Source of the DNA: Candidatus Hydrogenedentota bacterium
GTDB lineage: Bacteria; Hydrogenedentota; Hydrogenedentia; Hydrogenedentales; SLHB01
Reading direction: 5' to 3'
DNA: 64,000 nt
Assembly (NCBI GenBank): GCA_045863335.1
Contig: BTVY01000019.1
Location: 32,001-96,000 of the forward strand
Of the stretch, positions 41,319-42,764 are shown in pieces. A model generated the notes under the pieces. The model was not told where the DNA came from and did no database searches. It was given only the letters and a program-made list of their open reading frames with translations. Each line of letters starts with the position of its first letter. The stretch's first letter is position 1. Made by a program: the position numbers and the translations under genes.

Positions 41319-41347
41319 TTGCGCACCGCGCGGGACGCCGGTAGAAT
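41319..41347 (+). promoter_or_regulatory. sigma70 promoter for the leader ORF / DUF1559 unit
   Basis: TTGCGC-17 nt-TAGAAT, 30 nt upstream of GTG 41378. Confidence 0.6.
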
Positions 41348-41377
41348 GGCGTTTCCTTGTTAGCTGCGAGGAAGTCG

Positions 41378-41749
41378 GTGCGTATTCGATCGAAATCGTA
41401 CCGCGCGATTGCCGCGGTGTTGGCGGGGTACACCCTGCTTGCCAGCGGCCGCGCCTTGATCCCCGGCCTGTGCGCCACCCAGGCCGCCGTGGAGTCGCGT
41501 CTCGCAACTTGTTGCGAGGCGCCACCCGCCGCAACTGGGGGAGCGCCGTCGTTGGATGCGCCACCGCCGGAGACGCGCGCGTGTGCGTTCTGCAACCTTG
41601 CGAAAGGGCTTGCCGAACCCGTCGCGCGCGTGGCGCCACCGCAGCCTGCCTTCGAGGACTTGGCCTCCGCGCCATCCGTGCCACTCAGACACCCGCAAGA
41701 TCCCTCCCGGGATACGACGCGATCCCGTTCGCCGCCCGCCCCTGCGTAG
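41378..41749 (+). CDS. DUF2946/CruR-like leader protein with CxxC and a C-terminal RSPP motif
   Basis: GAGG upstream of GTG; basic n-region plus hydrophobic segment, C, CC, CAFC, Pro-rich linker, ...RSRSPPAPA-stop. Confidence 0.65.
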   Translation: MRIRSKSYRAIAAVLAGYTLLASGRALIPGLCATQAAVESRLATCCEAPPAATGGAPSLDAPPPETRACAFCNLAKGLAEPVARVAPPQPAFEDLASAPSVPLRHPQDPSRDTTRSRSPPAPA

Positions 41750-41882
41750 TTGGTGATACGAAATCTCATTGTGTGCGCTGACTGGATGTTGCCGCTGGAA
41801 TCCCATGCCATCGGCGATGGAGCGCGCACGTACCAAACAACGCATGAAACGCGCGGGTTTTCACCCGCCGCAGGAGCGCATC

Positions 41883-42764
41883 ATGGATCGAAAAGGCTTT
41901 ACCCTCATCGAACTACTGGTCGTCATTGCGATTATTGGCATTCTCGCTGCAATTCTACTACCGGCACTGGCTCGGGCACGCGAAGCCGCACGACGGGCGA
42001 GTTGCCAGAATAACCTGAAACAACTGGGACTCGTGCTAAAGATGTACAGCTCCGAAAGTAGCGGCGAGAAACTTCCTCCGATCAAAGTCTTCGATTGCGA
42101 TGGCGGTATTCACGCATTGAATCTGGTTTTCGATGCCCAGGGCGTCTACCCAGAGTACCTCTCGGATTGGAACGTGCTCGTTTGTCCCAGCGCCGCGATG
42201 TCCGGAGACCCCGTGGAACTGTGGGACGCGGGCGCCATCGACTCGCCCCATTGGATTGCGACGGCGGAGTCCAACGACGGAGAGGTCCTTCCCTGTGAGA
42301 TTACCGACCACCCATACATCTACCTGGGATGGGCCATTGGAAGAGACACGCTCGTGGACGCTGCCGATTTCAACGATCTGGAGCATGAAGGCCCGTTGCT
42401 GCGCGAGAATATCGAGTTGGACCCCACGTATGTCGACCAGGACTGGGAATTGGATCACCATACCTTCGGCGGATATACGACGGTGTTTCGCTTGCGCGAG
42501 GGCATCGAGCGCTTCTTCGTGACGGATGTGAACAATCCGGCGGGCTCCTCGTTGGCCCAGTCCGAACTGCCGGTCATGTGGGACTCCATCGCCGGCGAGG
42601 AAACGTCGCATTTCAATCATCTTCCGGGCGGTAGCAACGTGTTGTACCTGGACGGACACGTGGAGTTTCTTCGGTACAGCGGCGAGGTGGGCGAATCGTT
42701 CCCGGTAAACGGCGGCGGCCTCGCGCTCCACGAACTTGCACACGGTCACGGTGGACACCATTAG
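41883..42764 (+). CDS. Prepilin-type N-terminal cleavage/methylation protein (DUF1559, H-X9-DG-like) with His-rich tail
   Basis: [60 protein letters not shown]; ends [12 protein letters not shown]. Confidence 0.93.

Follow-up and report, generated by a model that had tools for sequence, protein, structure and literature searches.

A candidate CruR-like arrest leader in front of a His-rich DUF1559 pilin-like gene in Candidatus Hydrogenedentota

The 64,000 bp stretch of DNA considered here (the window; positions 32,001 to 96,000 of contig BTVY01000019.1, assembly GCA_045863335.1, from a Candidatus Hydrogenedentota bacterium) contains a two-gene unit in which a small open reading frame (ORF) with a CxxC motif and a near-terminal RSPP motif precedes the gene for a prepilin-type protein of the DUF1559 family. 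Our reading is that the small ORF is a cis-acting leader, an arrest-type metal sensor of the CruR kind that would, under metal scarcity, turn on a surface protein that resembles type IV pilins and binds metal, and we put its probability at about one half. That the leader regulates the pilin gene by arrest at all is the safer statement and probably correct. The leader and its parts are as follows:

41378–41749, + strand: leader ORF, 123 aa, CruR/DUF2946-like and of the Cys-rich subtype, GTG start (from residue pattern, profile match and ESM Atlas)
41378–41455, + strand: putative signal-peptide-like N-terminus, basic at its start and moderately hydrophobic over residues 10–22
41582–41593, + strand: CAFC, the CxxC motif and candidate metal sensor, with extra Cys at residues 32, 45 and 46
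41726–41737, + strand: RSPP, arrest-type motif

A Shine-Dalgarno (SD)-like GAGGAAG (41368–41374) stands ahead of the leader GTG at 41378, and the translation contains C32, C45-C46, CAFC at residues 69–72 and RSPP at 117–120, with exactly 44 residues between CAFC and RSPP and three residues remaining before the stop; the anatomy described in an earlier note on this DNA, made from the letters alone, is found complete in the translation. The signal-like N-terminus proposed in the same place has its basic start and hydrophobic stretch, but the stretch is only moderately hydrophobic (best 13-residue mean 2.05).

In CruR of Bordetella pertussis (Bp2923, upstream of bfrG), arrest at RAPP in the absence of copper blocks Rho so that the operon is read through, and copper on a CxxC 45 residues upstream releases the arrest; the CxxC–RAPP distance is 45 ± 1–2, RAPP lies three residues from the end, and the gene is first in its operon and followed by a 162 bp intergenic region (PMC9426467; this and the other papers are cited for those of their passages that were available). 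The CruR arrest has been demonstrated in vitro; RSPP and RDPP are partly permissive, and RSPP partly keeps arrest in ApdA and ApdP mutants (PMC12992588). The window pair resembles CruR-bfrG in its small first gene with a possibly export-like N-terminus, in a CxxC some 44–45 residues before an RxPP that is three residues from the end, in its long intergenic region (133 nt here) and in the presence of Rho in the genome. It differs in that the motif is RSPP and not RAPP, the leader falls below the Pfam cut-off, the target is pilin-like and not a TonB receptor, and no copper genes adjoin the pair; the lineage is absent from the available passages on CruR.

The sole Pfam match of the window leader is DUF2946 (PF11162; model positions 33–117 of 117, E 0.26), and at 12.5 bits against a gathering cut-off of 23.7 it does not by itself qualify for the family, but a paralogous leader of the same genome (C38) does so at 23.8 bits, and 23 of 29 family leaders match DUF2946 at E ≤ 1 (best 7.9e-6). 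In the ESM Atlas the DUF2946 set holds 12 of the leader's 30 matches (score 0.95, 48% of members). With the geometry, these placements support the earlier note's description of a CruR/DUF2946-like arrest leader, and the window ORF is most likely a divergent DUF2946 relative that would work like CruR; it is filed here as a variant rather than as a plain member because it scores under the Pfam cut-off and lacks a canonical copper target. The CxxC-to-RxPP gap is 42–47 residues in all 29 leaders (which were gathered with a 40–49 filter) and 43–45 in 27 of them, and relatives of the window leader carry RGPP (16), RDPP (7), RAPP (4) or RPPP (1) as arrest-type motifs. Among these very divergent sequences (pairwise identity only 12–38%), CxxC, RxPP, their spacing and their position appear to be all that is kept. 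Orthologues of two paralogous leaders are under purifying selection (ratio of nonsynonymous to synonymous substitution rates 0.04–0.30 in 7/7 pairs), the window leader itself having no close enough orthologue.

The loose pattern CxxC-35..55-[RK]xPP-stop fits 14 of the 96,013 stop-to-stop ORFs of this genome, and three of these terminate 600 nt or less ahead of a pilin-type gene, of which the genome has 33 (binomial P about 1e-6). The three leaders of the genome are that of the window (C19; RSPP, spacing 44), C38 (RGPP, 45) and C55 (RDPP, 44), and a leader-profile search of the genome gave no further significant copy. The 3/33 pilin-type genes that bear leaders are also the only ones, of 32 listed, that have at least three His in their last 25 residues, so the correlation between leaders and His-rich tails anticipated by the earlier note holds in this genome. 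A weak leader-profile match (E 0.018) also lies on contig C69 at about 19997–20293 (+ strand).

The pilin gene and its His sets are:

41883–42764, + strand: DUF1559 / H-X9-DG prepilin-type protein, 293 aa (above Pfam and NCBIfam cut-offs)
42249–42461, + strand: subclade His set H123, H143, H168, H192 and H193, all five in 6/6 subclade members
42609–42764, + strand: clade set H243, H283, E284 and H287, together with H246 and H259, which occur throughout the family, and a His tail that is flexible (from conservation and the predicted model)

The pilin ATG (41883) lies 133 nt past the leader stop, and the product is above cut-off for Pfam N_methyl (37 bits) and SBP_bac_10 (55.6 bits) and for NCBIfam TIGR02532 and TIGR04294 (the latter at 25.2 bits); its spacing, DUF1559 identity and C-terminal ending are as previously described. 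It is a full member of the DUF1559/SBP_bac_10 paralogs with N_methyl and H-X9-DG motifs (PF07596, TIGR04294), but its clade is one gated by leaders and has additional His that other paralogs lack. The predicted model (predicted local distance difference test score 91.4, predicted template modelling score 0.88) has a helix at 8–58, strands at 230–264, a last helix at 277–286 and disorder at 291–293. Its match to the type IV pilin fold is weak (best Z 4.5, root-mean-square deviation 3.5, 121 aligned), and the top 16 VIA rows are pilins or pseudopilins; Foldseek gave no match to the model at E ≤ 0.001, and a sequence search of the PDB matched only the N-terminal helix. Conserved Cys pairs are present in the protein.

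As a sample of relatives, the 90 matches at the top of a list of 1,658 pilin matches, from 21 genomes, were used, and the resulting pilin tree has 117 rows (30 own paralogs and 87 loci, with two truncated loci and a duplicate of the query omitted). The 28 leader-bearing pilins all belong to a single clade of 38 rows (support 0.99), and the 79 rows outside it are without leaders; of the ten leaderless clade rows, three lack upstream sequence and seven are true absences. The same clade is marked by its His residues: H283 is present in 37/38 clade rows and 0/79 outside, position 243 is His in 29 and Met in 7 of the 38 (His in 0/79 outside), H287 is found in 31/38 (4% outside) and H143 in 21/38, while H246 and H259 are common to the whole family. 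H283-E284-x-x-H287 is HExxH-like and is placed on the last helix by the predicted model. The earlier emphasis on the His tail needs adjusting, since leaders do accompany His-rich pilins but the conserved signal is the His on and before the last helix, the tail being variable; the internal H168, H192 and H193 remarked on earlier are conserved in the six-member subclade of the window pilin.

Seen from the leader side, the leader profile matches 94 of the 135 genomes of the phylum. In 80 regions fetched around matches not yet covered (of 150 matches listed) there are 89 leaders, of which 73 stand directly before a pilin gene, 15 before something else and one at a contig end; the profile was built from pilin-linked leaders, which biases the pilin-preceding share upward. 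These counts bear out the co-occurrence of leader and DUF1559 gene in relatives. Among the 15 exceptions are leaders that stand in tandem ahead of a pilin, as well as two operons of the ABC+FtsX+DUF3299 type and two of the OEP-MFP-RND type. A pattern scan of GTDB gave at least 118 loci. Of those listed, 49 have a GFTLxE-type gene with a leader in frame ahead of it, three of them with RSPP, and their records are labelled as Planctomycetota, Verrucomicrobiota, Sumerlaeota, WS1, Armatimonadales and Hydrogenedentota; the 69 listed matches without a pilin include few real leaders and no proteobacterial CruR. Among the GTDB loci listed, the pilins most like that of the window (by eye) are L111, L133, L140 and L150, all from Candidatus Hydrogenedentota.

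Leader and pilin behave as a cassette:

41311–42766, + strand: two-gene cassette of promoter, leader and pilin, present or absent as a unit

In two congeners (G003 and G005) both flanking genes are joined, with 41 and 49 nt between them, and the cassette is absent; G001 and G002 have no pilin match among those listed on the flanking contigs. In a near-identical strain one contig has 75 other letters between 41277 and 42767, and other contigs of the same run match the cassette exactly. The joined flanks and the cassette-bearing contigs together indicate that promoter, leader and pilin come and go together, and gain of the cassette in this lineage is the simpler reading. The pilin is followed by an unrelated PF06439 gene, a bystander that is present also without the cassette, and no copper-homeostasis genes lie downstream.

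The remaining features of the unit are in its control regions:

41319–41347, + strand: candidate sigma-70 promoter TTGCGC-17-TAGAAT, weak (8/12 consensus match)
41737–41746, + strand: possible anti-SD that a stalled ribosome would cover, with 41869–41878 as its complement (duplex −16.4 kcal/mol)
41750–41882, + strand: intergenic region of 133 nt containing a long hairpin, the pilin SD (41870–41876) and, immediately ahead of this SD, another hairpin (from sequence and folding)

The gene upstream is divergent, so the leader is the first gene of its unit. The hexamers of the promoter noted earlier are present, but they are weak and a promoter scan made no call for them; the C38 paralog leader is preceded by TTGACA-17-TAGACT. 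We propose that translation of the leader yields a peptide directed to Sec, and that with little metal available the ribosome would stall at RSPP. In that position it would keep Rho away from the C-rich stretch that ends the leader mRNA and would cover the sequence able to pair with the pilin SD, so that the pilin gene would be transcribed and translated. Metal bound to the CxxC as it freshly leaves the exit tunnel, perhaps aided by C32, C45 and C46, would release the stall and turn the pilin off. The pilin would be cut by prepilin peptidase and become a subunit of a pseudopilus or type IV pilus, where it may bind metal through the clade-specific His. By either route, Rho shielding or SD unmasking, stalling would be the on state, and induction by starvation is favored because most of the informative neighbors of related leaders are of the uptake type (L258, L309, L127, L149 and the all3515/ZepA-like genes). 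The genome encodes rho, a prepilin peptidase, secretins and PilB/GspE ATPases.

No intrinsic terminator was found by a + strand scan between leader and pilin, and the intergenic region (41750–41882) folds no better than shuffles (z-score −0.06). The anti-SD/SD duplex has an ensemble pairing probability of just 0.11. Over 26 loci, cognate pairs of leader end and SD are stronger than shuffled pairs (−12.2 against −10.9 kcal/mol, p about 0.003), possibly as an effect of G+C content, and three of the 26 loci are individually in the top tenth. Leaders are C-rich in 94/96 cases, to which four-fold sites add little (1.24 against 1.16 in own long ORFs). Two metatranscriptomes, available as contigs only, hold exact-match pieces over the leader alone (41374–41638 and 41412–41644, depth 2–3.5), which are too thin to speak for attenuation or expression.

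The leaders divide into two subtypes. A motif rule applied to 96 leader-pilin pairs, which mislabels a few truncated leaders, gives 26 Cys-rich leaders, that of the window among them, and 70 others that are on average richer in His; over the 60 residues preceding CxxC the former have a mean of 4.0 Cys and 1.5 His, the latter 1.7 Cys and 4.5 His. At least two Met occur in the last 20 residues of 14/26 pilins behind Cys-type leaders against 8/70 behind the others, kin among these not being independent. The window pilin groups (0.986) with five pilins that all have Cys-type leaders and H123, H143, H168, H192 and H193; three of these five closest relatives have Met at 243 and 287, and His-to-Met swaps at one or both positions occur in three separate Cys-leader subclades, including that of the window pilin. 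Sites of His and Met, and exchange of one for the other, are typical of Cu(I) sites. The pilins behind Cys-rich leaders, with their swapping of His for Met, thus hint at copper, and copper may be the likeliest metal for this subtype, at slightly under an even chance; zinc is a less likely candidate, nickel or cobalt an improbable one and any other metal more improbable still. The copper case is carried by the relatives, because the window pilin is itself almost without Met. We considered whether the window locus might be chimeric, with a Cys-type leader joined to a His-type pilin, and rejected this because Cys-type leaders precede each of the five closest pilins. More broadly, DUF1559 pilins may include metal-capture pilus or pseudopilus subunits with matched arrest sensors (Cys-rich leader and His/Met pilin for copper, His-rich leader and His pilin for zinc or nickel), recruited repeatedly and travelling as cassettes, sometimes in tandem, but we hold this only tentatively and think it rather doubtful as a whole.

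Tandem leader pairs stand before a single pilin at L024, L263, L265, L281 and L312 and could combine two signals or sharpen the response. Leader-pilin-leader-pilin arrays are found at L250 and L262, the former with one His-type and one Cys-type unit adjoining. One paralog of this genome (C10:4583-5731) lacks a leader; its closest relatives, L320 and L324, have leaders of the Cys type. The gene after this paralog encodes a small His-containing exported protein. At L029 the genes for an ABC permease and its ATPase (by eye) immediately precede a leaderless His-clade pilin, which may be controlled otherwise.

Genes near related leaders give mixed indications of the metal. HMBD and YHS proteins lie behind Cys-leader pilins (L271, L303, L324), and MerC-like and DUF4198 genes lie behind pilins at L262 and L264, where the leaders are not of the Cys-rich subtype. 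Related leaders head ABC+FtsX+DUF3299 operons (L258, L309) and OEP-MFP-RND efflux operons (L304, L313), which would imply opposite control directions within one leader family. In Planctomycetota and Verrucomicrobiota the leader-pilin pair is followed by secreted PEP-CTERM/dockerin proteins with N-terminal His and HxH, which mostly have no family match beyond the anchor, at the following loci:

L105, L107, L119, L125, L127, L134, L138, L139, L143, L144, L148, L149, L158 and L166

Among 43 neighbor proteins scanned, two are over the choice-of-anchor M cut-off (L127, L149) and three are weakly all3515/ZepA-like. All3515 is ZepA, a Zur-controlled exoprotein of zinc uptake (PMC10957091), and DUF3299 belongs to the Zur-repressed zrg operon (PMC9817125). 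Proteins similar to ZepA and to those of ZrgABCDE thus follow leader-pilin units or are headed by leaders elsewhere; they differ in that the known systems are Zur-controlled, and none is present at the window locus. In 35 close loci the pilin has no conserved metal gene behind it; what comes next is most often a protease-like gene (by eye) or nothing. A His-rich surface protein with Ig repeats lies directly after a Cys-leader pilin at L019:4075-5715.

A number of observations weigh against a CruR-like sensor that turns on a metal-binding pilin, or against copper as its signal. The window leader's DUF2946 score is below the family cut-off, seven of the 38 clade pilins have upstream sequence and no leader, and in a wider set 8/95 leader-bearing pilins lie outside the His clade; this corrects the single-clade picture given above and means that the leader has been recruited more than once. 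The kin compared are not independent, so p-values are overstated. The window pilin has two Met after residue 55, the fewest of the 26 Cys-type pilins; scans of overlapping sets of 43, 43 and 42 neighbor proteins found no SCO, PCuAC, CopC, YcnI, multicopper oxidase or TonB receptor; and the metal-specific neighbors that were found point to zinc. The efflux operons headed by related leaders would need metal-on control. As to the RNA, removing the leader part of the mRNA hardly opens the SD (opening cost 9.3 against 8.9 kcal/mol), and C>G bias was rejected as evidence for a Rho utilization (rut) site, the four-fold sites of the leader end being 14 C and 15 G and the bias being set by amino acids.

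The zinc-type neighbors suggest that the same switch, acting in the same direction, could instead answer to zinc (or nickel or cobalt), with the pilin part of a surface zinc-scavenging system. The window pilin is His-only and has the HExxH-like helix, and choice-of-anchor M and ZepA-like followers, DUF3299 operons, and MerC-like and DUF4198 genes all occur at related units. However, those neighbors in the phylum belong to loci whose leaders are not Cys-rich, the His-to-Met swaps of the closest relatives fit zinc poorly, shared palindromes (Zur-like or other) and Zur, Fur, CsoR and CopY consensi are nowhere above shuffles in 64 upstream regions, and both tested prototypes, CruR and CutF, sense copper; the zinc version is possible and on balance unlikely. 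The direction could also be that of CutF, which precedes cutO in Rhodobacter capsulatus, and where copper induces the stall and the SD is freed (bioRxiv 10.1101/2025.02.05.636593; 10.1101/2022.11.11.516240). Metal binding in the periplasm during export would then induce the stall and unmask the SD, and the pilin would be a metal sink or detoxifier. Both leaders are Cys-containing with a Pro-rich end, CutF is exported and the leader here may be, a downstream SD may be masked here as well (with the cognate-over-shuffled excess given above), and the two efflux operons would suit this direction. CutF has CxxxC and PPP with dependence on EF-P, in place of CxxC-44-RSPP, and most CutF-like intergenic regions are shorter than 100 nt, as against 133 here; SD masking is weak in the model, its cognate-pair signal may reflect shared G+C content with few loci standing out, and most of the informative neighbors are uptake-type genes. 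We therefore consider this direction improbable.

Two further explanations would take metal out of the regulation. RAPP-like leaders classically watch Sec or YidC, and one such leader, located ahead of a thioredoxin gene, contains a Cys pair (PMC12992588), so that the leader might, like SecM or Apd, monitor protein export or periplasmic disulfide formation and match pilin supply to secretion capacity; the conserved Cys pairs of the pilin would suit such a role. This seems very improbable, as only 3/33 paralogous pilins are gated, those being the ones with extra His/Met, the fixed CxxC spacing is that of CruR, and the non-pilin targets of related leaders include metal transport operons. The great divergence of the leaders, the weaker arrest expected of the RSPP variant and the dispensability of the cassette in close kin could even mean that RSPP has no regulatory effect and that the small ORF either encodes a metal chaperone secreted in free form or is a passenger in decay. 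The retention of CxxC, RxPP, spacing and position, the purifying selection on paralog orthologues and the cis action of both CruR and CutF make this the least probable of all, and the starvation-induced, CruR-like sensor remains our preferred reading.

The earlier note knew of no description of the pairing, but it is in fact already a row in published data: in the source data of Fig. 4B of a 2025 EMBO J survey (PMC12992588), DUF1559 is row 22 of a 31-row enrichment table, one of 30 downstream groups, with RAPP 112 against AAPP 68, fold 6.46 and adjusted p 1e-31. Among 30 of its 57 DUF1559 leader rows, most have CxxC (by eye) and two are annotated DUF2946, and the leader of row 2687 has the same Cys-rich N-terminal pattern as that of the window. 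That survey counted RAPP and RGPP only, which puts RSPP and RDPP leaders outside it, and its main text mentions neither DUF1559 nor pilins and does not discuss the leaders' CxxC, His sets or subtypes. The term DUF1559 does not occur in the available supplements of PMC9426467 or in the text part of those of PMC9973294, and a literature search that left subscription journals mostly uncovered turned up no treatment of the pairing, of the His clade or of the subtypes. What the window locus contributes is the motif in its RSPP form, the limits of the cassette, ligand sets specific to the clade and the matching of Cys/Met against His/His. The surprise is limited, the sensor being of a known kind and the pairing already in published data. 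DUF1559 is nevertheless a very large paralog family (33 pilin-type copies here), and a sensor that gates the copies with extra His/Met offers a specific and cheap functional test. The matched Cys/Met and His/His subtypes give a way to ask how DUF2946 leaders distinguish metals, a question left by the CutF survey. If the broader reading of metal-capture pilins with matched sensors is true, it would mean pilus-based metal acquisition in Planctomycetes-Verrucomicrobia-Chlamydiae (PVC)-type and related bacteria, with a sensor code that could be read off the sequence.

Upstream in the window, 38252–39804 holds three small genes, of which, judging from the translations, the first presumably encodes an NfuA-type Fe-S carrier-like protein and the last a pterin carbinolamine dehydratase-like protein. 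Finally, in two other genomes a 435-aa exported-looking protein with no Pfam match lies directly behind a leader (L296:2358-3662 and L329:2513-3817).

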